Source: Methanomicrobiales archaeon (GTDB taxonomy: Archaea > Halobacteriota > Methanomicrobia > Methanomicrobiales > JACTUA01). Taken from it: 64,000 bases of DNA. The notes under the pieces are model-generated. The model was given only the letters and a program-made list of their open reading frames with translations, had not been told where the DNA came from and searched no databases. Made by a program: the position numbers and the translations under genes. How positions within the stretch are numbered: the stretch's first letter is position 1; every line of letters starts with the position of its first letter. Shown here piece by piece: positions 30,947 through 61,422 of this stretch. The stretch is taken from the NCBI GenBank assembly GCA_015660865.1, contig JACTUA010000001.1:200304-264303 (forward strand), read 5' to 3'.

Positions 30947-31030
30947 GACCGGTGGGTAGACCGATAAGATAAACATTGATATTCGCTGAGAATCGTCCTT
31001 TTCCAGCTATCCAGATGAGTCTATTATTGG

Positions 31031-31192
31031 GCTCTCGGGGGACTTCCGCCCCCGCCGCGGGCATCCCCCGTCGTGTACTTGGACCTCGTCAAGGATGGTT
31101 TTTCGTACGAGACGGGGCAGAGCATCGCGGAAAGGGCCTATCCTCACTGGGGGATGTCACAGCGGCGGGGGCGAGCCGAAGGCGAAGCCCCC
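31031..31192. repeat. GC-rich inverted-repeat (MITE-like) element, copy A
   Basis: Left arm GCTCTCGGGGGACTTCCGCCCCCGCCGCGGGCATCCCCC. Right arm GGGGGATGTCACAGCGGCGGGGGCGAGCCGAAGGCGAAGCCCCC is its imperfect reverse complement. Homologous to 46232-46420. Confidence 0.55.
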
Positions 31193-31304
31193 AGGAGCGT
31201 CGATTAGGGAGGATCTCGATTAGATCAAAACAATAAAGTCAATCCGAAGGCGATCTGGAGGCTTTGTTCCGTACTTATGGCACCCCACGAGGTGCGATAG
31301 CTCC

Positions 31305-38726: not shown

Positions 38727-40537
38727 AGAAGTCACGGGTATTCGTGGACGGTGCCCTCATCGGCCTCGTCGAGAACCCGAGGGATCTCGTCTCGGGCTTG
38801 AGAAGGATGCGGAGGAAGGGCGAGATCCCGACCGAGATCAACGTCTCCTTCAAGGAATACAACGGGGACGTCATCATCCACACCGACCGCGGGCGGGCGA
38901 GGCGGCCCCTTATCGTCCTCGAGAAGGGGAAGCCCCTCATCACCCCCGACGATATCGCGAAGCTGAAGGACGGGCTCATCCCCTTCGACGACCTGGTGAA
39001 GCGTGGCCTGATCGAGTTCATCGATGCCGAGGAAGAGGAGGACCTCTACATCGCCATCCACGAGCGCGAGATCACCCCCGAGCACACCCACCTGGAGATC
39101 GATCCCTCCCTCATCCTGGGCATCGCCGCGGCCCATGTCCCCTTCCCCGAGCACAACGCAAGCCCCAGGGTCACGATGGGAGCAGGGATGGTGAAGCAGG
39201 CCCTCGGCTTCGCCGCAGCGAACATGAAGCTCCGGCCTGATACCCGGGGACACCTCCTCCACTATGCGGAGCGGCCCATCGTCCACACGAGCACCTCGGA
39301 CTCGATCGGTTCCGATGACCGGCCCGCAGGGCAGAACTTCGTGGTGGCCATCCTCTCCTACGAGGGGTACAACATAGAAGATGCCCTCATCTTTAACCGG
39401 GCCGCCATCGACCGTGGCCTCGGCCGCTCCCACTTCTTCAGGACCTATGAGGGAGAAGAGCGCCGGTACCCGGGCGGCCAGGTGGACAAGATCCAGATCC
39501 CGGACGAGGAGGTGACCGGTGCCCATGGGGCGGAGTTCTACCAGCACCTTGACGCCGACGGGATCATCAATCCCGAGACGGTGGTCCTCGAGAAGGACGT
39601 CCTGATCGGGAAGACCTCCCCGCCCAGGTTCCTCGAGGAGCCCTCCGGGGAGCTCATCTCCGTTGAGAAGCGGAGGGATACCTCGGTCACCATGCGGTCC
39701 AACGAGAGGGGGATCATCGACACGGTCATCATCACCGAAGGTGAGAACAGCGCACGCCTGGTGAAGGTTCGGACGAGGGACCTCCGGGTGCCCGAGGTCG
39801 GCGACAAGTTCGCCTCACGCCACGGGCAGAAGGGGGTCATCGGCCTCATCGCACCCCAGGAGGACATGCCCTTCACCGAGAGCGGTATCACCCCGGACAT
39901 CGTGATCAACCCCCATGCCATCCCGAGCAGGATGACCATCGGGCACATGCTCGAGATGCTCGGCGGCAAGGTGGGATCGATGGAAGGAAGGCGGATCAAT
40001 GCAACCGCCTTCTCCGGCGAGTCCGAGACCGATCTCAGGGCATCCCTGAAGCAGCTCGGTTTCTCCCACACCGGCCGCGAGGTGATGTACGACGGGATCA
40101 CGGGGAGATCCTTTGCAACCGACATCTACGTCGGTATCATCTACTACCAGAAGCTCTACCACATGGTCTCATCGAAGATGCACGCCCGTTCGCGGGGCCC
40201 GGTCCAGGTCCTCACCCGCCAGCCCACCGAGGGGCGCGCGAGGGAGGGCGGACTCCGGTTCGGTGAGATGGAGCGCGATGTCATGATCGGGCACGGGGCC
40301 GCCATGGCCCTGAAGGAGCGGCTCCTCGATGAGTCGGATAAGGTCGTCCAGTACGTCTGCGCCCACTGCGGGATGATCGCGATGCTCGACCGGAAGCAGA
40401 ATATCACCCGGTGCCTGGCATGCGGCGGTGAGACCGACATCTACCCTGTCGAGATGAGCTATGCCTTCAAGCTCCTCCTGGACGAGATGAAGTCCATGGG
40501 TATCGCCCCCCGGCTGAAACTGGAAGATATGGTGTAG
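38723..40537 (+). CDS. rpoB1: DNA-directed RNA polymerase subunit B' (C-terminal half of Rpo2)
   Basis: ATGA overlap with rpoB2. [23 protein letters not shown] and the C-terminal Zn ribbon CAHCG..CLACGG. Confidence 0.95.
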
Positions 40538-40547
40538 GAGGTGCGTG

Positions 40548-44353
<3,806 letters not shown>

Positions 44354-44363
44354 GAGAATCGCA

Positions 44364-44654
44364 ATGGATTTCAACATCTCACTGAGGAGAGCACTAAAGA
44401 CCGGGAAAGTGTTCCTGGGACAGAACAGCACAAGAACATGCATCACCGAGGGAAAGGCACGGCTCGTCGTCGTGGCATCCAACTGCCCCGGGGACTTCCG
44501 GAAGTTCCTCGAGACCACGAAGGATGTACCGGTCCATGTCTTCGCGGGCTCCGGCGTCCAGCTCGGCATGGCCTGCGGGAAGCCCTTCCTCGTCTCGGCC
44601 CTCGCCGTCGTAGAGCCCGGCGAGTCGGACATCCTCACCCTTGCGAGGTCCTGA
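44364..44654 (+). CDS. rpl30e: 50S ribosomal protein L30e
   Basis: LRRALKTGKVFLGQNST..ARLVVVASNCP. Canonical position after rpoA2. Confidence 0.9.
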   Translation: MDFNISLRRALKTGKVFLGQNSTRTCITEGKARLVVVASNCPGDFRKFLETTKDVPVHVFAGSGVQLGMACGKPFLVSALAVVEPGESDILTLARS

Positions 44655-44655
44655 C

Positions 44656-45087
44656 ATGGGCGAGATCATCCTCTCCGAGGACTGCATGCGCCTCATGTCG
44701 CAGTTCGAGCAGCTGACGGGCGCGAGCAGCCGCGACTGCATCATCGATGACCGGAACGGCCGCATCATCCTCGTCGTGAACCCCGGCGAGATGGGGCGGG
44801 CCATCGGGAAGAAGGGCGCCTCCATCAAGAAGGCCTCGGAGGTGATGGGGAAGAAGATCGAGGTGGTCGAGTACTCCCCCAGCCCCGAGCAGTTCATCAG
44901 GAACTGCTTCCTCCCCGCCAAAGTGAACACCCTCGAGTTCGAGGGCGAGGGCGAAGAAAGGGTCGCGAAGGTGACGGTGCGGGACGAGGACAAGGGCATC
45001 GCCATCGGCAAGGAAGGGAAGAACATCTTCAAGGCCAAGCGCCTCGCCCAGCGCCAGCACAGCATCGCCGACGTAAGGCTGGTGTAA
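44656..45087 (+). CDS. nusA: archaeal NusA-like KH-domain transcription factor
   Basis: Two KH motifs (GRAIGKKGASIKK, GIAIGKEGKNIFK). Canonical position after L30e. Confidence 0.9.
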   Translation: MGEIILSEDCMRLMSQFEQLTGASSRDCIIDDRNGRIILVVNPGEMGRAIGKKGASIKKASEVMGKKIEVVEYSPSPEQFIRNCFLPAKVNTLEFEGEGEERVAKVTVRDEDKGIAIGKEGKNIFKAKRLAQRQHSIADVRLV

Positions 45088-45089
45088 CT

Positions 45090-45107
45090 CCTTTTTTTAT
45101 CTTTTTA
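45090..45107 (+). terminator. T-tract terminator candidate after nusA
   Basis: CTTTTTTTATCTTTTT lies immediately after the nusA stop. Archaeal terminators are oligo-T tracts. Confidence 0.35.
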
Positions 45108-45246
45108 CCAATTGGTTAGTTTGTCTTCAGGGACTAAGATGATCAATGCTGCAAAGGATCCCGAGGACCAACCTTCACAAAATCTAGATGGCAGCGGGCT
45201 AAGTTATAAATAACCTTAGTGCTAGTGATTATTCGTAACCAAATTT

Positions 45247-46125
45247 ATGCCAGAGCCCGCGTCAACGTCAATATTATCAATCGCATTACCGCCTATTTTT
45301 GAGACTTTTTTAACGAAATTAGGCAGCTTGATTGATTTAAAGGACTTATGGAGAATATTTTGGTTAAATCGACACTTAGAAAAGAAAGCAGAAGATAAGA
45401 TGGTGGTTGATGATATTTTGGATTTAAAATCCCGATTAATCGATGCGATAAAAAAATCTGATTACGAGCGAATGAACTTTTTATTGTATGCGATGCTGCA
45501 TAAATGCGATCAAATGTCTCCAGCTGCTAGAACAGCCGTTGCATTATCTATCGAAGATAGCTTGATATCTTTTTCTTCGATGCCTAATCTTTTAGAAGAT
45601 GGTCTTTTTACAATATTCGCAATCTCTATGAAGTTTTTACCGGAATGGGAAGAAAAATATCATCCGATATATACAAAGAAAGGTGATATGCTATTTTTCA
45701 CCTTTTCACCTGCGCAAGACATTTTTCAAGATTCACTTTTTTCTGCATCGAGTGTTGTATTGGGGCTCATTTATAGGATTATAATTAAATCTTCAGAATT
45801 ATCGGAAAAAAATTTAATACGTTGCAGTAACTTCTTATTATTTCTTTTAGCCGGAGATTTGGACTTAAACAAAAGAAGTAAGTTCTTTTACACGTCGATT
45901 TTACTGATCATTGTACAACTTGCCGCCAAAGCGAAGTCATTAAAGTTAGAGCCTTTAAACGAGAAATTATTTGTACTGCTTAAAAAATTTGATAAAAATT
46001 GGTTAGATGAAATATTGAAAATTAGTCTGGAGAAAGCAAATCCGTTCGCAAAAATGGGAGATATCGACGTTATACTTGCAACAAAAAATGAAATTCTTTC
46101 TTTAAGGGACGAATTGAACAAATGA
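45247..46125 (+). CDS. hypothetical all-helical protein (AT-rich island gene 1)
   Basis: 292-aa ORF in AT-rich DNA with Lys/Ile/Leu/Phe-rich composition unlike its neighbours. TATA-like GTTATAAATAA lies about 40 nt upstream. No motif recognised. Confidence 0.5.
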   Translation: MPEPASTSILSIALPPIFETFLTKLGSLIDLKDLWRIFWLNRHLEKKAEDKMVVDDILDLKSRLIDAIKKSDYERMNFLLYAMLHKCDQMSPAARTAVALSIEDSLISFSSMPNLLEDGLFTIFAISMKFLPEWEEKYHPIYTKKGDMLFFTFSPAQDIFQDSLFSASSVVLGLIYRIIIKSSELSEKNLIRCSNFLLFLLAGDLDLNKRSKFFYTSILLIIVQLAAKAKSLKLEPLNEKLFVLLKKFDKNWLDEILKISLEKANPFAKMGDIDVILATKNEILSLRDELNK

Positions 46126-46231
46126 GTATCGTAATTTTAGGTATGGATGCCCTTGGGGATTTTATCGGATCCCCTCGTTCCGGATTTCTACCCAACTATA
46201 AGCCGGTGGACTTTCCGGGGAAAACCTGGAC

Positions 46232-46420
46232 GCTCTCGGGGGAGGGAGGTTTCATAAGAAACCGACCTCGAGCGACGAAGTCGCGAGCTTCGCCCCCGCC
46301 GCGGGCACCCCCCCGTAGTGTACTGAGATATCCGGAAATACTTTTTCCCATATGATCTGATGCCCAGTTATTGGGCCTATCCCCACGCGGGGGACGCCAC
46401 AGCGGCGGGGGTGAGGGCGA
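46232..46420. repeat. GC-rich inverted-repeat (MITE-like) element, copy B, with a ~44-nt two-hairpin insert
   Basis: Shares GCTCTCGGGGGA..CTTCGCCCCCGCCGCGGGCAC(C)CCCCGTAGTGTACT and GGGCCTATCCCCAC..GGGGGACGCCACAGCGGCGGGGGTGAG with 31031-31192. The insert is GGGAGGTTTCATAAGAAACCGACCTCGAGCGACGAAGTCGCGAG. Confidence 0.55.
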
Positions 46421-46421
46421 T

Positions 46422-46802
46422 ATGGCAATAATTTATTGCTCTGAAGAATTAATCAAATCGCTAATGACCGATATTTGTATCGAATATTATGACTTTTTGT
46501 TTTTAGTTGGTATTATCACTGCATTTATAATAGAACTTGTAATCGGCACCCTTGCCATTCGTTGGCTTTTGAGAAGGCATGCAATGATGACGCATCAACC
46601 CTTTAATACTGCCGGACACGTATCACGATTCTTAACAGCTATTATTACAGGCGCTGTAAGTGGTTCTATTGTATATTATCTTGTAAAGGAGCCATCTCCT
46701 GATTTTGTTGGGACAATACTGATAATGATGATGCTGTTAATTTTCATAGTTGTCATGTATTTCATTAGTTTGGGTGTTGAAATCTACTTTTCACAACAAT
46801 AA
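46422..46802 (+). CDS. hypothetical small membrane protein (AT-rich island gene 2)
   Basis: 126 aa from ATG 46422. Three hydrophobic segments. The 17 upstream codons of the ORF-track entry lie inside the GC-rich repeat. Confidence 0.45.
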   Translation: MAIIYCSEELIKSLMTDICIEYYDFLFLVGIITAFIIELVIGTLAIRWLLRRHAMMTHQPFNTAGHVSRFLTAIITGAVSGSIVYYLVKEPSPDFVGTILIMMMLLIFIVVMYFISLGVEIYFSQQ

Positions 46803-46877
46803 TTGGCTTTTTTGAGGGACGAGCGACCCTAATGCTCTGGAACTCTCTTTTTGGAGATTTTTTCGGGTGAACAAAAT

Positions 46878-46961
46878 GCGCGTGGGAAGGGAGGTTTCAT
46901 AAGAACCCGTCCCGAGCGACGAAGTCGCGAGTTCACCCCCGCAGCTCAGGCACCCCATTGC
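46878..46961. repeat. partial copy C of the GC-rich element (two-hairpin module plus left arm)
   Basis: GGGAAGGGAGGTTTCATAAGAACCCGTCCCGAGCGACGAAGTCGCGAGTTCACCCCCGCAGCTCAGGCACCCC is a direct repeat of 46241-46310. Confidence 0.5.
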
Positions 46962-47060
46962 TATGGGCTGATACAAAGTAAAACAACTTTTTAAACAGAA
47001 ACCTTTTATAAATGGCCCAAAACCATTGTGTATAGAGATTTGACTCCTCGGAGCCAATAT

Positions 47061-48917
47061 ATGTCAGAAATATCACCAAAACCTTATCCACCCAATAGCG
47101 ATCTTGAACAAATGGCGATAACAACATTTGAGAGTTTATTAGATTTGAAAACAGTCTTCCCAAGAATTTCACGAAATGATAAAATACCCGATATTGACGG
47201 ATGTCTGGTTTTATGTGATATTAATAAAGTTCCAATAGCGAAATTAGAAGTCCAAATTAAAAAATTACCTGATGGAAATTCAGATGACCCCAAAATTCCT
47301 TGCCCCTTATCAATTTTCGGCTATGCAAAAATGGCAATTGTCCCTGTTCTTTTGATCTCTGTGGATGTTGACAAAAGCATTGCGTATTGGATCCATATTG
47401 ACGATGCGTTATTCTCAAAGTATCGTGATTCAATCACCGAAATACAAAAAACGGTCTTAATCCACTTTCCCCATGAAAACTACATTGATGGAAAAGATTT
47501 GAATTATCTAACTAAATGGAAACAAATTTATGAGGATAAACGAGGGAAGATCGAAAACTTTGATCGAATAGAACGTGAAAATGCATTACTGAAAGAATTT
47601 TCTAATCCAATCTTGGGAAAGGAAAGTCCTCATATTAAAGAAATTCATCGGTTTTTAGATGATCTGAATTATTTTTTAGATACGCAATTTCCGATTGTTA
47701 AAAAAGTGTTTTTTAAAAATGCATGGAAGGTGGGCATAGCGTATTTTGAGTATTCAAACGATCGCCTCTCGTATTCCTTGTTCCCGATTCCCTCCGATAA
47801 AAACGACGTTCAGATAAAAATTATTGATGAGCCTCTTAAAAGGAAATTGAGCAAAGAGCACTACGATACTACAGGACATTATCGAGAAAATCCGATAAAA
47901 AGACGATCTCGTGATTATGCTCTTGAGATAATTGAATCTAGAATTTCACGAATTTTACAATATCATCTTCTTAATCATAAGAATGAATTTTTAGCGCGAG
48001 AGTTCATCTTTGCGTTTATAGACCAATTTTACGTCCAATTAGGCCTTAAAATTAAAAATGAATACACAGTTGAAGAAATCGATATGGCTTTTTTCCGCTT
48101 CTTGCCCCATTGGACTGCCGAAGCAATTCAACACCTAATGCAAGGTAAAGGGAAAAATAAGGTTGGCCCGTCAAATCCCATATTTCGAAAATTATTCATT
48201 GATCCTGATTTGATTAATTGTCTCATAATGCCCAATGAACAACAAATCATTATCGAACGTGTACTAAATCGATTAGCCAATAACAACCCAACGCCAATAA
48301 TTCCGTTAGGCAACGAAAAGTTACCCTTCGGTACATTTTTTGAATTATTTACGTTCTTAAAATCCCTCGGAATAGTTTCAATTCAAAGAATTTATTCCCC
48401 CAAAGATTATGGCCGGTTGCGCACGAGATCAAATTGGATGTGGAATGTTTATTCACCAGAACAAATAAAAGAAAATTTGTCTATCTTTTTCGCTAATTTA
48501 AATAACGTTTATACAAGTCTTGTTTATCAAAATTTTTTCGAAATTAAAGATAACCTACCGATATTCGGTAAGGCAAATAGAATTGTTGCAGTGTACTCAG
48601 TTGAAGAAGACTATGATATGCAACACTTTCCATCTCTACATTGTTATTTCCTTTTTGATGAATCGCTTGGCAGAAAAATTGTTTTCGAATTATACAATAA
48701 AACCGAAGTGCCAGACATCCCCTCTATGCAGGAGATAAAATCAGATCAGGACTTCTTAATCAATGGAAGAAAGTACCCGATTATCGCTTTGAGTCAGGAA
48801 ATCTTAGAATTTATTTTCAAAGATTTGCCAATGACGGATTATTGTTATGATTTGCTTCAAAGAAATTTGAAGAATTATTTCCATAATAGGAAAGAAGAAA
48901 GGAAAAGCTTAGGATAA
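47061..48917 (+). CDS. large hypothetical protein with DUF4365-like (restriction-endonuclease-fold) N-terminus (AT-rich island gene 3)
   Basis: EQMAITTFESLL..KIPDIDGCLVL..AKLEVQIKK matches the E..D.DG..(E)VQ.K pattern of DUF4365-type PD-(D/E)xK domains. About 480 further residues have no recognised motif. ATG 47061 follows GGAG. GTG 47028 is an alternative start. Confidence 0.6.
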   Translation: MSEISPKPYPPNSDLEQMAITTFESLLDLKTVFPRISRNDKIPDIDGCLVLCDINKVPIAKLEVQIKKLPDGNSDDPKIPCPLSIFGYAKMAIVPVLLISVDVDKSIAYWIHIDDALFSKYRDSITEIQKTVLIHFPHENYIDGKDLNYLTKWKQIYEDKRGKIENFDRIERENALLKEFSNPILGKESPHIKEIHRFLDDLNYFLDTQFPIVKKVFFKNAWKVGIAYFEYSNDRLSYSLFPIPSDKNDVQIKIIDEPLKRKLSKEHYDTTGHYRENPIKRRSRDYALEIIESRISRILQYHLLNHKNEFLAREFIFAFIDQFYVQLGLKIKNEYTVEEIDMAFFRFLPHWTAEAIQHLMQGKGKNKVGPSNPIFRKLFIDPDLINCLIMPNEQQIIIERVLNRLANNNPTPIIPLGNEKLPFGTFFELFTFLKSLGIVSIQRIYSPKDYGRLRTRSNWMWNVYSPEQIKENLSIFFANLNNVYTSLVYQNFFEIKDNLPIFGKANRIVAVYSVEEDYDMQHFPSLHCYFLFDESLGRKIVFELYNKTEVPDIPSMQEIKSDQDFLINGRKYPIIALSQEILEFIFKDLPMTDYCYDLLQRNLKNYFHNRKEERKSLG

Positions 48918-49157
48918 CATTTCCAAGTGCATCCCTTATGCACCCGGAATGTTTTCAAATCCATTTTCTCAGAAGTATGAGACAGTATCGAAAATATGAA
49001 GATTTTACCCCCTTGCCCCCAACCCACCTGCCGCCGCCTGCTGGGGAGAGCACGGTCTTACACTCGGGCCGCCATTAAAGCATCTCCTATGGAGGCGGGC
49101 ATCCGCGATGGGGAAGGCCTTGCCTGCAGCAATCAGTCCCGCCCACCTCCAGCCCTA

Positions 49158-50237
49158 TTAGGCCGCCTCCACAGCGCGGGTCAGGAAAGGACTCTTCCCC
49201 CTCATCTTCCCCCACGCCCTCACCAGCCCGAAGCAGCCGGTGAGCATCATGTCCCCATAGGGTGCAGCCTGGTAGGCATCGGGGAGGATCCCTTTCCGGT
49301 TCGGGCCGGTGACCGCCAGGTATTTGCTCGGATGCGGCCGGTGTACCCTGGCCCCATGTCCTCCATCCCTGAAAATCTCCTCGTTTGTTAATGTCCCTTC
49401 ACGGAGCTTCCCGATGAGGGAGAGGAGGTGGGCGCGATCCAGGGAATGCGTGTGATGCTCGACGATCCCACAGACCTCCTCCCCGTGGAGGTTCACGCAG
49501 AAGGTATGGGCATTCCCGGCGTTCACAAGGGTGACGCCGTCCTGTGCCCGTTCCTTCACCCAGGGATCGCAGAGTGCCCCGAGGAGAGCGGCTGGGCCGG
49601 TGTCGATGACGAGCGACCCGGGCGCCTGTCCCCGGAGGGCCGCCATCCGGGTCATGGTCGGGAGGGGCGGGTCCCGGGCGAGGGCCCAGATCTGCCAGTC
49701 TCCCTCCTCCAGGAGATCCCCCATGACCCTGAACCGGTGGAGGCGGTTGCTCTCCGCCGGGGAGAAGCCATGGTCCTGCACGGCGAAGGCATGGTCAACC
49801 GGGTATGGTACCCCGAAGGCGCGGAGGGCCACCCTGATTTCAGCCTCCATGTAATCGGTGGTGCGGACGAGGGTTGTATCAGGGGGCTGGCTGGAGACGA
49901 GCTGGATGCCAAGGGACCTTACCTTCTCGAGGTTGTCATGGATGGTGAGGGCCGCGGGCTCTGTCGCAAAAACGGAGAGCCCTTTCCTGAGATGCTCGGA
50001 AACGGCCTGGACCGAGTCCCCGCCTCCCATGGTGTACCCGTCCAGGAAAATGGCCTCGCCCCTCGCACCCGCTTCGCGGATCCTCTGCGCAACGACGGCC
50101 GTCGGCGCCGGGAGGACCATCTTCACGCAGTTCTCGACGGGGCGGCCCGGGTCGTAGACGAGGACGTCCTGGGTCCCCCGCCCGATGTCGACGGCGAGGA
50201 GGGTCATGCCGGGCTGCGCGAGGGGGTCTTGCTCCAT
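49158..50237 (-). CDS. DUF1786-like ASKHA (actin-fold) family protein
   Basis: LLAVDIGRGTQDVLVY (phosphate-1-like), VIDTGPAALLGA and LVNAGNAHT. The size and sequence resemble archaeal DUF1786 proteins. It overlaps the nrdD 3' end by 34 nt. Confidence 0.55.
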   Translation of the reverse strand: MEQDPLAQPGMTLLAVDIGRGTQDVLVYDPGRPVENCVKMVLPAPTAVVAQRIREAGARGEAIFLDGYTMGGGDSVQAVSEHLRKGLSVFATEPAALTIHDNLEKVRSLGIQLVSSQPPDTTLVRTTDYMEAEIRVALRAFGVPYPVDHAFAVQDHGFSPAESNRLHRFRVMGDLLEEGDWQIWALARDPPLPTMTRMAALRGQAPGSLVIDTGPAALLGALCDPWVKERAQDGVTLVNAGNAHTFCVNLHGEEVCGIVEHHTHSLDRAHLLSLIGKLREGTLTNEEIFRDGGHGARVHRPHPSKYLAVTGPNRKGILPDAYQAAPYGDMMLTGCFGLVRAWGKMRGKSPFLTRAVEAA

Positions 50238-56634: not shown

Positions 56635-56711
56635 GCTGAGGACTTAACGACCTTATTGTTTAAAATAAATATCGGATGTCTCTGCAAGTTGTTTTAAAAA
56701 TATCATAAAAA

Positions 56712-58289
56712 TTATGTACTCATTAAAGAACTTGCATATGTAAACAGTAATTCGCTTCTTTTATTAACGAATTCGTCGAAAGAATCCGTAAATACTGATG
56801 GAGGGATTAATGCTGATCTTAACATCCGGTCGATATTGTCAGGCATTTTTTCACGATAATTTCTTGGGCATTCTCCGCCCAATCGGTTATTATCGTTTTT
56901 TGACATGAAGCATATATTTGCTAAACAATCAGGAGAAGATGAAATTGTTTGTTCTTTCAAACAATTTTTTGGAAATATGTGATGAAACTCATTTTTATTG
57001 TATTCTTTTAAGACCTCTCCAATATTGATAGGTAGTCCTGAAATAAAGTTCAGAGGGTTTAGTTGGGCAAGCATTAGAATGAAAGAATTTGTATTAACAG
57101 TTCCTAACTTGAAAGAATTGTCGATGAAAAATTCTCGATTAATATTTACCGAAAATCTTTCAAGTGCCGACTCCTCCCCGTTTTTAAGTTTAATGATTTC
57201 TTCTATATCTCGATTCAGATTTCGTAAGACACCTGCACTATATCTTTTTGAAAAACATGTTTTCCAGAACCACTTCTTGATTTGAGTTACTTGAGCAGCA
57301 GTGCAAGTAATTTGGCGACCATTTTCAATCGAGAAAAATACTGATAGAGGTATTAATATTGAATTGAATGGTAAATTATCTTGTTTTGAAAGGTTAAACT
57401 GAGTTCTAATGAAATCAATACTTCCTTTAATCCCATTAGTAATTTCCTGGAATCTATCTCGAACAATCGCACCATTTAAATCCATTACCGTTTTTACGCT
57501 AACTTCGTTCTGCAATATCGCCGAAATACACCTCAATAATAAATTCTCGTCATCTCCAACTTCTTTAAATCCAAAGGGTTTCAGATCACCTTTTAATTCT
57601 CCAAATTTCGTTTTCAAGTCGAATTCTTCACTCCAAGTCCAGGCAGAAAGTAACTGAAATGTATCAAGAGGAACGCCTCGCGTATTAATTCTTTCAAAAA
57701 CAATTGCTACTTTTGTCTTATCTTCAGTCTCCAAGATATCAATGGGAATTCTCGTTTCCTTAAAAATCGATTGAAGAGTATCAATTTTTTTTGCTAAATC
57801 ATCAGTAAAATCTTTTGTTGCCAGCCGATATGCGACTGTATCAAATAAGTATTTCAATGGGAAATGTTTCGAATTATCAAATTGTTCTTCTGAACATGAA
57901 TAAAATTGTGTGTCCTGCATGACTGGATCCTCTGTAAAATCGTAATATATACTGAATTTTTGATTTTCGGAAGAGTCTGTTGCTGGCCGAAGAATAGTCT
58001 GAAACACACCGAACAATGAAGTGATTCGTTGTTGCCCATCCAAAACATAATCAATTGGATAATCTGGATCCCTATCAATGAGATTAAAAGGCCCAATTTG
58101 CTTTTCAGTACTCAAAGGTTGCTTCGTTCTCCAAAATAATAGCGTACCAACAGGATATCCTTTATAGATACTATCCATTAGATACGCAATCCGATCTCCT
58201 TCCCAAATAAAACCGCGTTGAAAAGCTGGTATCCGAATTTGGCCGGAAAGAATTTTTTCATTTAACTCCCGAATAGTATATTCCGCCAT
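56712..58289 (-). CDS. GmrSD-like type IV (modification-dependent) restriction endonuclease (DUF262 plus DUF1524-like HNH)
   Basis: N-terminus IPAFQRGFIW..YKGYPVGTLLFW..LDGQQRITSL (DUF262/ParB-like). C-terminus EFHHIFPKNCL..NICFMSKNDNNRLG (His-Me finger). AT-rich. Confidence 0.8.
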   Translation of the reverse strand: MAEYTIRELNEKILSGQIRIPAFQRGFIWEGDRIAYLMDSIYKGYPVGTLLFWRTKQPLSTEKQIGPFNLIDRDPDYPIDYVLDGQQRITSLFGVFQTILRPATDSSENQKFSIYYDFTEDPVMQDTQFYSCSEEQFDNSKHFPLKYLFDTVAYRLATKDFTDDLAKKIDTLQSIFKETRIPIDILETEDKTKVAIVFERINTRGVPLDTFQLLSAWTWSEEFDLKTKFGELKGDLKPFGFKEVGDDENLLLRCISAILQNEVSVKTVMDLNGAIVRDRFQEITNGIKGSIDFIRTQFNLSKQDNLPFNSILIPLSVFFSIENGRQITCTAAQVTQIKKWFWKTCFSKRYSAGVLRNLNRDIEEIIKLKNGEESALERFSVNINREFFIDNSFKLGTVNTNSFILMLAQLNPLNFISGLPINIGEVLKEYNKNEFHHIFPKNCLKEQTISSSPDCLANICFMSKNDNNRLGGECPRNYREKMPDNIDRMLRSALIPPSVFTDSFDEFVNKRSELLFTYASSLMST

Positions 58290-58460
58290 TTTTACGCCCC
58301 CCACCCAAAAATGTTAGACAATAAAGAAGAGATTCATAATAATATATAGATTTTTTGAGGGATTTTAAAAATAAATCTCAAAATGATCATTTATTGAGTT
58401 TACTTCATCTAAAAAAAGATGTTGACTTAAGAATGATTTTTTTGGGGTGGGGGATTCAAG

Positions 58461-58934
58461 TTATTCCCTCTTCACGAACACGAGCGAGGCCGAGTTCATG
58501 CAGTAGCGCTGGTGCGTCGGCGCTGGGCCGTCGTCGAAGACATGCCCGAGATGGGCCCCGCACCGGGCGCAGAGGACCTCGGTCCTCGCCATGCCGAACG
58601 AGACATCCTTCTTCAGTTCGACGTTCTGATCAGAGACCGGCTTCCAGAATGAGGGCCAGCCCGTGCCGGACTCGAACTTCGTGTCCGAGAGGAAGAGGTC
58701 GGTCCCGCAGCAGGCGCACCGGTAGATCCCGTGCTCCTTCCAGGCATGGTACTTCCCGGTGAACGGCGGCTCGGTCCCAGCTCTCCGGGCGATCTCGAAG
58801 GTGAGGGGATCGAGAATCTTCTGCCACTCGGCATCGGATCTCTCTACCTTTTCGACAAGGGCGACGGAGCCCGTCTCAACAGAGAAGATGGGCACCTTTC
58901 CCGTTGATCTCTTCATGGTATCCGCTGCCATCAC
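58461..58934 (-). CDS. msrB: peptide-methionine (R)-S-oxide reductase
   Basis: GIYRCACCGTDLF..SGTGWPSF..CARCGAHLGHVFDDGP. Confidence 0.9.
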   Translation of the reverse strand: MMAADTMKRSTGKVPIFSVETGSVALVEKVERSDAEWQKILDPLTFEIARRAGTEPPFTGKYHAWKEHGIYRCACCGTDLFLSDTKFESGTGWPSFWKPVSDQNVELKKDVSFGMARTEVLCARCGAHLGHVFDDGPAPTHQRYCMNSASLVFVKRE

Positions 58935-59187
58935 CCAAGAGGAATATCCCCTCCTCCTAGTGACCTTTGCGGTCGGCTCTGGGCCGGACAGCAGTGCCCC
59001 TCCCCCGGTCCGGTCTTCCCTACAATGCCTTGTGGTGCTGTCGGCGCTTTCCTAAGAAAATAGTTGCAACACAATGCCTCAGCGGGCTAATGGAGATCAA
59101 CAGTTCTTATCAAGTCTCTCTAACAATAGAATAATCTAATGTACCTAACAAGAACATATAAATACCATCAAAACGTACAAAACCTAT

Positions 59188-60315
59188 ATGACACAAATGG
59201 AATTCCCCTGCCTCAAGGCAGGGCAACATGGACGCACATTTTATTCGTGTGTGATCCCCGCTGACAGATTGTCTGAAATGTATAGTAAGGGAATAATCAA
59301 AGCAGATGTATGGAGGCCGGAACACAGACAGGGATATCAGAGAGAATCGGTCAGGCTAAGAGCACGCAAATTTGGTAATTATGTTAAGAGTAATGGCATT
59401 TCCCCCACATCGATCCTGTTATACCAGAGAGACCTGTCAAACGGCGTGGTGTTCGCTGATGGGAAAATCACTATCCCAGATATGAAATCTGATGAACCTT
59501 TGTTGTACATCGTTGATGGACAACACCGGGCACTCGGCCTTGAAGATGGGTTCGCAAGAGGTGATCTTGATGAAACCTTGAAATTCGACGTACCCGCTGT
59601 AATCCTCCTGAAAGGAGATCGAGATCCCTATATCGAAGAGGCAGAACAATTCGTCACTATAAATTCGACTCAAAAGCGGGTCAGAACCGATCTAGCCAGT
59701 CAGCAATTGCTGAAAATCGCGGAACAGGGTGGAATATTGAAAGGTGCAATCACAGATGGATCGATTATTGACGTCGGTGCACCAAAGGAAATTCTGAAAC
59801 TGTTTGCAACCCATGTTGCGAACATGCTTACAGATGATCCCTCCTCACCGCTGTATGGAAAAATTGTCCGACCGGCAACAGCACGTGCCGATTCGGGATT
59901 GCCATCTTCATCACAATTCGAAGACTCGCTGCTCGATAACTATGTCGAAGGATCAGTGATGTCATTCGCGGCGAATCGGGCATACACCATTGGGGAGCTT
60001 GTGGAGCTGCTGAAGAATTACTGGGCCGCGATCTTTGAACTTCTTCCTAGTGCAATTGAATCCCCTTCCGAGTACCATGTCACAAAGACGGTTGGGACGC
60101 ATGCATTAAACGCCCTTATACCCTCTATGTTCAATTTGAAGAGGCTCAAGAAAGTCCCGAGCAAGGAAGACTTTCAAAAAGTGCTTTCCACTCTCGAGTA
60201 CATGGCTGACGAATCCCACTGGGGTAAAGGAGGAACAATTGGCGGTTATGGTGGGGGGAAGGGAGCATTCAAAAGACTCACAAAGGATCTCCACACGGAT
60301 CTCCTCAATTCTTAA
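59188..60315 (+). CDS. DGQHR-domain (DndB-like, ParB-nuclease superfamily) protein, orphan
   Basis: LYIVDGQHRALGL is preceded by GYQRE and ILLYQRD. The FVTINSTQKRV motif is typical of the DndB/DGQHR family. GC is lower than the surroundings. Confidence 0.8.
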   Translation: MTQMEFPCLKAGQHGRTFYSCVIPADRLSEMYSKGIIKADVWRPEHRQGYQRESVRLRARKFGNYVKSNGISPTSILLYQRDLSNGVVFADGKITIPDMKSDEPLLYIVDGQHRALGLEDGFARGDLDETLKFDVPAVILLKGDRDPYIEEAEQFVTINSTQKRVRTDLASQQLLKIAEQGGILKGAITDGSIIDVGAPKEILKLFATHVANMLTDDPSSPLYGKIVRPATARADSGLPSSSQFEDSLLDNYVEGSVMSFAANRAYTIGELVELLKNYWAAIFELLPSAIESPSEYHVTKTVGTHALNALIPSMFNLKRLKKVPSKEDFQKVLSTLEYMADESHWGKGGTIGGYGGGKGAFKRLTKDLHTDLLNS

Positions 60316-60316
60316 T

Positions 60317-60327
60317 TCTTTTTTATC
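60317..60327 (+). terminator. T-tract terminator candidate after the DGQHR gene
   Basis: TTCTTTTTTAT lies directly after stop 60315. Confidence 0.3.
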
Positions 60328-60408
60328 CCATGACGTTGCATGGCGACCTGATAGGATAAGGCTTCCCGCCGGCCTGGAAAAATCGAGGGGAGGATTTCCG
60401 AGAGATCC

Positions 60409-61422
60409 CTATTTCCTCTTCGACTTCTCCTTCGCGAGCTTCTCGACCGCCGCGAGGTCGACCTTCGGCTCGACCAGGAGGCGCCCGGAGGCAACCGCCC
60501 GGTCGACGAAGGCCTTCCCGATCGGGGTGCGGACGAGGAGCGTGGTGGAGCCTTTCGGGGCCCCGACCGCTCCTGCCGAGATATCCGCATCCACGGCGGC
60601 AAAATCGGTGCAGGACCGGCACCCGGGCCGGACCGTCGCCTCCAGCTCCTTCAGGGGGATGGTGACCTGGTCCCGGCCCTCGACGGTTACCTCGAGCTTC
60701 CCGGCGACATTCAGCCTCTTCACCTGCCAGGGCTCGACATGATACTTCTCCCCGAGTACACCCTCGACGAGGGCACGGTAATCGAAGGTCTCGGTGCAGA
60801 ACAGGCCGATGAGAAGCCTGACCGACCGGCCATAGGGCTTTGCGAGCTGGTTGTCGCTCGCCCTCATCCTCTGGACCGCCTGGACCGCACATGGCACCCC
60901 CACCACCGCGAGCCGCCGGAGCTTCCTCTTCACCACCGCCTCCTTCAGGGATGCGAGGAGGGGGACCCACCACGAGTAGCGGGAGCCGGCCTCGTGGATG
61001 AGGGGCTCCGATGAGGTGATGATGGCCGAGCGGGGCTTGAGGGTGAACCGGTCCTCGGTGACCGTCACCACCCCGTCGATGAGCCCTTCATCGAGGGCAT
61101 TCGCGAGGATGGCGGTGACCGCCCCGCCGCTCTGCCGGTGGGGGACCTCGAAGCCCGCCCGGGCCGCGAGCGCCTCGGTGTACACGCCGAGCATCTGCCG
61201 CATCTCCCCTGAGGCCCTCGGGCAGATGGCATAGCAGACACCGCAGGGGACCCCGTCCTGGTCCTCCTTGCAGGTCCCGGTCGAGACCGGGCTGTTCATC
61301 CCCTTGCCTGTCTCGAAGAAGAGCCCCTCGCCAGGGCAGACCGCGACGCAGGCGCCGCAGCCCGAGCAGAGGCCGGCGTCCCACACATCCTTCTTCAGGT
61401 CCTTGTAGGTCTTCTCGGTCAT
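60409..61422 (-). CDS. FrhB/FdhB-family F420-binding iron-sulfur flavoprotein (putative electron-input subunit of glutamate synthase)
   Basis: N-terminal CSGCGACVAVCP and CGVCYAICP, then an FrhB-type body (GGAVTAIL..VGVPCAVQAV). Adjacent to the split gltB genes. Confidence 0.8.
   Translation of the reverse strand: MTEKTYKDLKKDVWDAGLCSGCGACVAVCPGEGLFFETGKGMNSPVSTGTCKEDQDGVPCGVCYAICPRASGEMRQMLGVYTEALAARAGFEVPHRQSGGAVTAILANALDEGLIDGVVTVTEDRFTLKPRSAIITSSEPLIHEAGSRYSWWVPLLASLKEAVVKRKLRRLAVVGVPCAVQAVQRMRASDNQLAKPYGRSVRLLIGLFCTETFDYRALVEGVLGEKYHVEPWQVKRLNVAGKLEVTVEGRDQVTIPLKELEATVRPGCRSCTDFAAVDADISAGAVGAPKGSTTLLVRTPIGKAFVDRAVASGRLLVEPKVDLAAVEKLAKEKSKRK

Follow-up and report, generated by a model that had tools for sequence, protein, structure and literature searches.

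A variable slot beside nusA in an uncultured Methanomicrobiales lineage holds AT-rich cargo with a candidate one-protein immune gene

Positions 45110–49196 of a 64,000-nucleotide stretch of Methanomicrobiales DNA (contig JACTUA010000001.1 of assembly GCA_015660865.1; the whole stretch is called the window below) are strain-specific cargo, held in a variable slot between two core genes, nusA and a gene of the DUF1786 family. The host belongs to an uncultured Methanomicrobiales lineage of 64% GC, and most of the cargo is an AT-rich segment, or island, with three open reading frames (ORF1, ORF2 and ORF3). The explanation that we consider moderately probable is that independent cargo occupies a slot at an ancestral break in gene order, and that ORF3 is a one-protein immune sensor-effector. 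A sequence-only reading of the same DNA had proposed a horizontally acquired, possibly defensive three-gene module that either inserted at, or marked, a breakpoint in a conserved archaeal gene string. Below, we describe the slot, the evidence that the island is genuine, and the family to which ORF3 belongs, before the competing explanations are weighed.

The slot and its empty site

The features that delimit the slot are as follows.

44656–45087, plus strand: nusA (archaeal KH-domain NusA), the core gene on the left of the slot; called as a gene on contig L096, identical here, and matched by Pfam KH_2/KH_NusA
45103–45109, plus strand: left copy of TTTTACC, a putative target duplication or crossover core; homology to the relative L008 ends at 45109
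45110–49002, plus strand: acquired cargo rich in AT (GC about 0.34) that L007, L008, L009 and L012 lack; junctions confirmed by contigs L096 and L097
49003–49009, plus strand: right copy of TTTTACC, at the switch from AT-rich to GC-rich DNA
49010–49196, no strand assigned: GC-rich segment of 187 nt that L008 lacks; the final 11 codons of DUF1786, which are divergent, and its stop lie within it
49158–50237, minus strand: DUF1786 gene, right core gene of the slot (Pfam PF08735, E 2.8e-73); convergent with the island and overlapping nrdD

When 185,579 species genomes were scanned with NusA, 80 Methanomicrobiales loci (L001–L080) were obtained and taken with 10-kb flanks; NusA is 70–99% identical across them. 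The synteny comparison with relatives that the sequence-only reading had suggested yielded a precise empty site in L008, the closest relative with both flanks (NusA 98% identical), where nusA abuts the convergent DUF1786-nrdD genes. L008 9957–10468 aligns with window 44600–45109, and L008 10467–10769 with window 49197–49500; relative to L008, the window has 4,087 extra bases, 45110–49196. The slot is also empty in L007, L009 and L012. In these four loci (NusA identity 76–98%), the gap between nusA and DUF1786 is 21–175 bp and the order is nusA, convergent DUF1786-nrdD-grx, then thpR-cca.

Different cargo is found in the window, L001, L002, L003 and L005. L002 (NusA 97%) has another AT-rich island of approximately 3.2 kb and 28–45% GC at the same TTTTACC site (L002 5964–9157), which encodes a 329-aa membrane protein and a 429-aa protein with a TIR domain (TIR_2, 82 bits) and HEAT repeats. 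A third, unrelated AT-rich sequence lies at the slot in L001 (NusA 99%) and continues up to the contig end, and the slot of L003 and L005 contains thioredoxin-like and UbiA genes that are GC-rich. No relative among the 80 loci has a homologue of ORF1, ORF2 or ORF3 at the nusA slot. Recognised defence genes or domains are present in two of the cargoes, namely the TIR_2 and HEAT protein of L002 and the DUF4365 nuclease of the window (see below); the nearby msrB slot of the window, described further on, holds GmrSD and DGQHR genes. The slot behaves as a core-gene-flanked hotspot.

TTTTACC occurs twice in the window, flanking the AT-rich part, and once in the empty site of L008, within ...CTTATTTTACCCCGTAA...; the probability of meeting it by chance in a 40-nt stretch at a boundary is approximately 0.003. 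The sequence-only reading had seen no flanking direct repeat, and this has to be corrected. The different island of L002 is arranged alike, its left junction being TTTTTTACC and its right junction ATTTACC. Terminal inverted repeats were searched for at the island ends and none were found, and the island encodes no recombinase. The AT-rich 3.9 kb may have entered at the heptamer that now stands on both sides of it, either through an insertion that duplicated the target or as a circular DNA, by one crossover at a TTTTACC core; in both cases, the mechanism is suggested by the repeat.

On the left, the slot is bounded by the probable terminator of nusA. On the right, homology to L008, L002, L003 and L004 resumes at 49196–49198, and the DUF1786 product, which ends RGK-SPFLTRAVEAA in the window, ends RGK-IR in L008. 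Because the C-terminus of DUF1786 is different in every relative, the right border of the slot falls within the last few codons of this gene, which with nrdD forms the convergent pair. Origin of 49010–49196 as a remnant of the UbiA gene of L002 and L003 was considered and rejected; the match is to the DUF1786 3′ end in another frame. DUF1786-nrdD synteny is kept in L002, L003, L005, L008, L009 and L012.

Two further observations concern the DUF1786 gene. Its last 1–11 codons differ among all of the relatives L002, L003, L005, L008, L009 and L012 (IR, EVMA, EIPS, GVPP, SPFLTRAVEAA and so on). The gene, annotated as a ‘putative PFL-activating enzyme’, overlaps the start of nrdD by 34 nt (window 50204–50237), and the two are adjacent in all relatives, a sign that the gene may be functionally connected with the anaerobic ribonucleotide reductase.

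Composition and authenticity of the island

The switch from GC-rich to AT-rich DNA for approximately 3.9 kb after nusA, reported from the sequence, is borne out by sliding-window GC and codon composition. In 400-nt windows, GC is 0.60–0.67 up to 45.0 kb, 0.31–0.37 across most of 45.2–49.0 kb and 0.63–0.68 from 49.0 kb on; the edges of the island (45.1–49.0 kb) are less than 200 nt wide, and there are two GC-rich bumps inside it, at 46.0–46.6 and 46.6–47.2 kb. The three same-strand ORFs, at 45247–46125, 46422–46802 and 47061–48917, are confirmed and encode 292, 126 and 618 aa. Their GC content at third codon positions (GC3) is 0.33, 0.31 and 0.31, respectively, compared with 0.80–0.93 in the native genes rpoA1, L30e, nusA, DUF1786, nrdD, thpR and cca. 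The bias towards Lys, Ile, Asn and Phe that had set them apart from the flanking genes is equally clear from the fraction of F, Y, M, I, N and K residues (FYMINK), which is 0.35–0.39 in the island ORFs and 0.16–0.29 in native genes. In 500 shuffles of the island the longest ORF had 163 codons, such that ORFs of 292 and 618 codons were obtained in none of them, and an ORF of at least 126 codons was obtained in 1.4%.

The island is genuine sequence and no assembly chimera, as both outer junctions recur in two independent metagenome assemblies. A Joint Genome Institute (JGI) contig, L096, is 100% identical to window 39824–46236 over 6413 nt, from nusA into ORF1; another, L097, assembled from a second sample, agrees with window 47708–49846 at 99.86% identity over 2138 nt, from ORF3 into DUF1786. 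The two cover the outer junctions, with window 46237–47707 lying between them.

None of the three ORFs matched an integrase or transposase model in Pfam, NCBIfam, PADLOC and PHROG scans, and a tRNA search found none near the island and none nearer than the one at 36.7 kb, 8 kb away. On these points the sequence-only reading was right, and the integrase or recombinase and the tRNA or att target of a classical integrase-borne genomic island or provirus are both missing. That the segment was horizontally acquired is well supported by the empty site in relatives, the extreme codon composition and the 7-bp flanking repeat.

Gene order after nusA

The string rpo-L30e-nusA-S12-S7 is the textbook archaeal arrangement, and it was the absence of its continuation that had led to the proposal that the island inserted at, or marks, a rearrangement breakpoint. 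It is indeed the case that rps12 is absent from the window (no match to an S12 query that was checked against Pfam, E 2e-48). However, rps12 was found within 10 kb of nusA in none of the 80 Methanomicrobiales loci, which come from Methanoregula, Methanolinea and related lineages. The unlinking of nusA from rps12-rps7 is ancestral in this lineage, because rps12 is absent near nusA in 80 of 80 loci and because nusA directly abuts DUF1786-nrdD in relatives; the island neither caused nor marks it, and the breakpoint proposal falls on a ground that the sequence-only reading had itself named.

Directly after the nusA stop is a T-tract, as first reported.

45092–45106, plus strand: oligo-T tract T7-A-TC-T5, likely archaeal terminator of the rpo-L30e-nusA operon

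The tract is kept in L001, L002 and L008 and probably acts as a terminator. Read-through from the rpo operon had been suggested as a source of expression for the island genes. As a main source this is unlikely, because the strong oligo-T tract precedes the island and because ORF1 and ORF3 appear to have TATA-like boxes of their own. A sigma-70 and terminator scan, which has little meaning in an archaeon, gave nothing above shuffles.

ORF3 and its family

47004–47013, plus strand: putative TATA-like box (TTTTATAAAT), approximately 50 nt upstream of ORF3, read from the sequence
47061–48917, plus strand: ORF3, 618 aa, N-terminal DUF4365 nuclease and novel C-terminal module; candidate stand-alone defence protein
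47061–47555, plus strand: ORF3 residues 1–165, predicted DUF4365/PD-(D/E)xK nuclease domain (E16, D46, E63, Q65, K67)
47583–48881, plus strand: ORF3 residues 175–607, conserved C-terminal module, predicted to be a sensor or oligomerization module

ORF3 has at least 67 homologues in bacterial and archaeal metagenomes, most of them approximately 610 aa long and aligned over their full length at 26–56% identity. Their genes are AT-rich (28–37% GC) in hosts of 30–52% GC. The start of ORF3 at the ATG at 47061, which has GGAG 8 nt before it, is backed by the family-conserved N-terminal residues Y9, T12 and E16. The public annotation of this protein (601 aa, ABSD81_03850) starts 17 codons downstream (the omitted stretch being window 47061–47111) and so lacks all three, including the likely catalytic glutamate.

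The assignment of the N-terminal domain draws on profiles, predicted structure and conserved residues. Against Pfam PF14280 (DUF4365), ORF3 itself scores 22.3 bits (gathering score 24.3, E 1.5e-4); the homologues P0074, P0069 and P0060 score 33.0, 32.5 and 24.9 bits and pass the gathering score, and 33 of the 67 homologues from the first search carry PF14280 in their precomputed annotation. Judged by these scores, DUF4365 membership holds at the level of the family. The AlphaFold2 (AF2) model built from the family alignment has a pLDDT of 88.7, and in a Foldseek search of the PDB only its N-terminal 150 residues or so found a match. XauSPARDA and NbaSPARDA head the list with their DUF4365 nuclease domains (probability 1.00, E 1.2e-5 to 1e-3), and the D212 nuclease, RecU and PvuII come next; in BFVD there were only RecU/HJR-like matches, to the same N-terminal region. 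The model thus predicts the alpha/beta core of the restriction-endonuclease-like fold. A PDB profile search also found 9qbq, a ‘DUF4365 domain-containing protein’, over the segment ..DG..E...VQ.K...YW.. (residues 48–120).

The catalytic motif D...(E)xQxK is intact in ORF3. Among 52 family members, D46 and Q65 are invariant (52/52 each) and E63 is present in 49. The corresponding Q and K of TmuRE (Q62/K64), and D, Q and K of the eCIS toxin EAT16 (D46/Q66/K68), are essential for DNase activity or toxicity (PMC10810196, PMC11297309). In the PADLOC search that had been recommended, as in NCBIfam and PHROG scans, none of the three window ORFs returned anything usable; the only match of ORF3, a weak one to Cas3d, was judged to be spurious. 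Of the 52 family members, 42 match the Aga_REase (Argonaute-associated REase) model of PADLOC.

Residues 170–618 of ORF3 have no structural match (Foldseek against PDB and BFVD) and no Pfam match. A profile of this C-terminal part recovered P0071, a protein of 598 aa whose residues 167–591 align to ORF3 175–607 with 36% identity over 434 aa (E 3e-92). Its N-terminus is a TIR domain instead of the nuclease (TIR_2, 34.6 bits against a gathering score of 28). Such an effector swap on a shared scaffold is a signature of modular immune proteins. The gene for P0071 (L089 1064–3469) is 10 nt downstream of a Cas1 gene, on a contig of 4.5 kb.

The contexts of seven ORF3 homologues (L081–L087) were examined along with that of the TIR form L089. 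ORF3 homologues directly follow hsdR-hsdM-hsdS of a type I restriction–modification (R-M) system in L081 and L082, lie between an MmeI-type methylase and a PLD-SNF2 helicase in L084, adjoin BrnT and HsdR in L085, and adjoin AbiEi/AbiEii in L086. No short prokaryotic Argonaute (pAgo; Piwi-family) gene is present in the island, and none is recorded beside the seven homologues. L083 (ENA k141_2092105, 30 kb) is labelled ‘Desulfobacteria bacterium’ at NCBI, yet beside the ORF3 homologue it has ribosomal protein S8e and other archaeal-type genes, and it may be mis-binned. Among 2.9 million IMG/VR contigs, a single one encodes a relative of ORF3, and a tblastn search of ORF3 against plasmids gave no match.

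ORF1, ORF2 and the question of a module

45204–45212, plus strand: putative TATA-like box (TTATAAATA), 35 nt upstream of the ORF1 start, read from the sequence
45247–46125, plus strand: ORF1, 292-aa all-alpha helical-repeat protein of a small uncharacterized family
46422–46802, plus strand: ORF2, 126-aa membrane protein with three transmembrane (3-TM) segments predicted from hydropathy

A word-based homologue search with ORF1 found only ORF1 itself. An exhaustive phmmer search of 1.84 billion representatives gave 11 relatives, the best 40% identical over the full length, and conserved motifs of the family include NLIRVGN, IQIAAKA and MGN..FLAT..EI. The structural comparison proposed for the three proteins, run for ORF1 as well as ORF3, gave for ORF1 an AF2 model of an all-alpha solenoid (pLDDT 80.9, pTM 0.81) with only generic ARM/14-3-3-like helical-repeat matches in the PDB (Foldseek, E > 0.01), compared with the SPARDA DUF4365 domain for ORF3. 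The ORF1 homologues are solitary 1-kb genes of 25–40% GC in hosts of 60–68% GC. One of them, in L093, follows thiC; those in L090 (1–1427) and L092 (1–1309) have msrB on one side and, on the other, a GC-rich DNA methyltransferase gene (..DPFMGSGST..) that turns its 3′ end to them, which is the slot that holds a GmrSD gene in the window. Four of the five ORF1-family contigs, including L092, are only 1.2–1.4 kb long and offer little or no context.

Scans of ORF2 against Pfam, NCBIfam, PADLOC and PHROGs found nothing, and none of the loci examined contains a relative; large protein databases were not searched with it. Its reality as a gene is moderately supported.

Homologues of ORF3 (seven contexts) and of ORF1 (three contexts) were never found together, and the loci examined contain no ORF2 relative alongside either. 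The sequence-only reading had treated the three genes as a unit and had suggested a co-occurrence analysis; the unit does not survive it, as homologues of ORF1 and ORF3 occur singly. On this evidence the genes move independently of one another, which makes the island a mosaic.

GC-rich repeats between the ORFs

The ORFs are separated by short GC-rich repeat elements, as first noted.

46243–46287, plus strand: element A copy 1, 45-nt GC-rich double hairpin; 93% identical to 46888–46931 and 96% to L008 18494–18538
46285–46425, plus strand: GC-rich palindromic repeat, hairpin of approximately 125 nt (46291–46415), stem of approximately 24 bp, variable loop
46888–46956, plus strand: element A copy 2 (46888–46931), then a left-arm fragment of the palindromic repeat

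The palindrome has a predicted folding energy of −95.7 kcal/mol (z = −4.7). Further copies are found in native intergenic DNA of the window (31023–31201), in L002 (8982–9144), L004 (7024–7089) and L043 (11439–11509), and in L039 and L042, with arm fragments at L002 6004–6063 and 9205–9264. Contig L096 stops at 46236, immediately short of the first repeat, which is where a multicopy sequence would be expected to break an assembly. No Rfam family matched the spacers at gathering or E-value thresholds. To judge from the distribution of their copies, the spacers are native dispersed repeats and not boundaries specific to the island.

The arms of the palindrome family are highly conserved (..CCGCCCCCGCCGCGGGCACCCCCCG.. 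/ ..GGGGGACGCCACAGCGGCGGGGGTGAG..), and the family is common to this lineage and Methanoregula loci. Element A follows the pattern GGGAGGTTTC-NNNN-GAAACC..GCGACGAAGTCGC, in which loop bases vary and stems are kept; it is in tandem in L008 18494–18600, at a site where the window has a DGQHR gene.

Same-strand ORFs of no obvious function, with imperfect palindromes of approximately 125 nt and host-like composition between them, recall integron cassette arrays and clusters of attC sites lacking integron-integrases (CALINs). Unlike those, the island has no IntI, inspection of the repeat ends revealed no R″/R′ (RYYYAAC/GTTRRRY) cores, and the same repeat is found in ordinary native intergenic DNA (31023–31201). 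The integron-like reading was provisionally set aside on these three grounds.

Proposed function and competing explanations

The scheme that we favour is one in which three genes that travel independently make up a mosaic cargo, with native GC-rich palindromic repeats scattered among them, and in which ORF3 would be the functional centre, as a one-protein immune sensor-effector. The C-terminal module of approximately 450 aa would sense a cue from an invader and cause the protein to assemble with itself. The N-terminal DUF4365 PD-(D/E)xK domains, thereby brought close to one another, would carry out indiscriminate DNA degradation, with abortive infection as the outcome, as in SPARDA, which has the same nuclease domain. 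ORF1, the alpha-solenoid, and ORF2, the 3-TM protein, would be separate accessory cargo. In the literature, DUF4365 effectors (as SPARDA filaments) and TIR effectors (as SPARTA oligomers) are described as being switched on through higher-order assembly. As both effectors are activated by assembly, a module that oligomerizes upon a trigger would be the simplest common denominator of ORF3 and P0071. The defence role of ORF3 and its activation by oligomerization are both inferences. The early suggestion of ‘possibly defence’ is plausible, given the DUF4365 nuclease in ORF3 and the TIR-HEAT protein in the slot of a sister strain, the role itself being presumed from these domains.

Several points weigh against this scheme. 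Protection against viruses or plasmids by members of the ORF3 family is presumptive. ORF3 of the window falls just under the DUF4365 gathering threshold (22.3 versus 24.3 bits), position 67, the catalytic Lys, is R in 14 of the 52 members (K in 38), the C-terminal module has no recognizable sensor fold, and PADLOC has no model for the full-length protein. Two of the seven contexts (L083 and L087) have housekeeping genes and no defence gene nearby. With regard to entry into the slot, the flanking repeat is short (7 bp), neither terminal inverted repeats nor a recombinase are present to explain integration, and the scheme does not account for the 187-nt GC-rich segment at 49010–49196.

Alternatively, ORF3 might be a selfish free-standing nuclease, either similar to a homing endonuclease or a solitary restriction or type IV enzyme, that spreads by cutting empty sites and has no part in immune sensing. 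Its PD-(D/E)xK fold, the single-gene AT-rich insertions in unrelated hosts without an integrase, and the frequent position of homologues beside R-M genes would all be compatible with this. We nevertheless consider it unlikely, because the same C-terminal module is fused to TIR, which is unable to mediate homing or restriction, because the flanking DNA has no conserved ends and because the insertion sites of homologues are unrelated to one another. It is improbable that a virus or plasmid once integrated here and decayed to leave the island, whose genes would then be mobile-element leftovers and not host defence genes. The foreign composition, the short flanking direct repeat and the lack of known function of ORF1 and ORF2 could be accommodated, but there is no integrase, capsid, replication or partition gene in the island, PHROG and plasmid matches are lacking, the IMG/VR contigs contain the single ORF3 relative mentioned above, and each gene is found singly elsewhere.

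A co-functional defence module of ORF1, ORF2 and ORF3, acquired as a unit, is very improbable, and is largely refuted by the lack of co-occurrence. The three genes are adjacent, share a strand and an extreme AT composition, and a small transmembrane protein beside a nuclease resembles some sensor-effector pairs. However, none of the seven ORF3 homologues has an ORF1 or ORF2 relative alongside, in three other loci the ORF1 homologue is an AT-rich gene of 1 kb that stands by itself, and in the window native repeats of 260–300 nt separate the ORFs, of which ORF1 and ORF3 appear to have TATA-like boxes of their own. Finally, the AT-rich block could be thought a chimera of metagenome binning or assembly, as the source is a metagenome-assembled genome, the contrast in composition is extreme and several related contigs (L001, L004, L006) break just after nusA. 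This is scarcely credible, and is refuted for both outer junctions, since the two independent JGI assemblies from different samples span nusA-ORF1 and ORF3-DUF1786.

Relation to known systems

The ORF3 family can be regarded as a new variant within the known class of nuclease/TIR sensor-effector immune proteins. It has the effector domain of SPARDA, with a shared D...QxK motif and a Foldseek E of 1e-5 over approximately 150 columns, and non-specific DNA degradation on activation is its likely output as well. In contrast to SPARDA, ORF3 lacks APAZ (the Foldseek alignments cover 146–160 columns of DREN-APAZ targets of 390–416 residues), its C-terminal 450 aa are of no known fold, and there is no short pAgo (MID-PIWI) gene beside it or its seven homologues; no nucleic-acid guide is implied. 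ORF3 is not SPARDA, given that none of the homologues examined has an adjacent pAgo gene.

Divona, a DUF4365-Mrr-crr6 single-gene anti-phage system of a Vibrio integron (bioRxiv 10.1101/2024.07.02.601686), likewise has an N-terminal DUF4365 domain and an otherwise uncharacterized C-terminal region in a small cassette. ORF3, however, contains no crr6 (PF08847) or second Mrr domain (only DUF4365 in a Pfam scan at E ≤ 1), and its C-terminal module is different and much larger. Alternative effectors on one scaffold, as in P0071 and ORF3, are also a property of SPARTA-type and other TIR/nuclease effector-swapped immune proteins, although the scaffold of ORF3 is not APAZ/pAgo, STAND or another recognized sensor.

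Core-gene-flanked hotspots have been well documented for bacteria but far less for archaea. The core defence hotspots of Pseudomonas aeruginosa (PMC10250203) resemble the present slot in being fixed between housekeeping genes, with strain-variable content and without mobility genes. The slot described here differs in being archaeal and in directly abutting the terminator of the rpo-L30e-nusA operon, and its cargo is 30 GC-points below the host, with a 7-bp flanking repeat and interspersed native palindromic repeats.

A second variable region

The window contains a second variable region (56645–58462 and 58937–60411), which consists of two single-gene insertions flanking native msrB (58461–58934), as defined relative to L008, L005 and L003. 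One is an AT-rich gene for a GmrSD-type (DUF262) restriction enzyme (56712–58304, minus strand, GC3 0.28) and the other a DGQHR/DndB-like gene (59188–60315, plus strand). Target duplications were looked for at both insertions and none were found.

Implications

The comparison removes a tempting reading, in that the conserved string was not broken by the island; the break seems to extend through this part of the order. What is documented in its place is that an uncultured methanogen lineage has an archaeal hotspot for which there is an empty site, at least three different cargoes are seen, and a 7-bp repeat marks the junctions. A wider proposal can be put forward only tentatively: that the C-terminal module of ORF3 is a new sensing or self-assembling domain, and that it defines a single-gene immune family of bacteria and archaea with an interchangeable effector, mostly a DUF4365 DNase and in at least one case TIR. 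In GC-rich methanogens, members of the family might travel as AT-rich cassettes that settle beside core genes, at short cores or palindromic repeats, by a route that is independent of integrases or that uses one acting in trans.

The family is a testable immune candidate, with at least 67 members of approximately 610 aa in which a large module of no known fold is joined to a DUF4365 nuclease or a TIR domain. If the proposal is true, this module would be a new class of sensor among one-protein abortive-infection systems, and the protein a compact, trigger-activated DNase.

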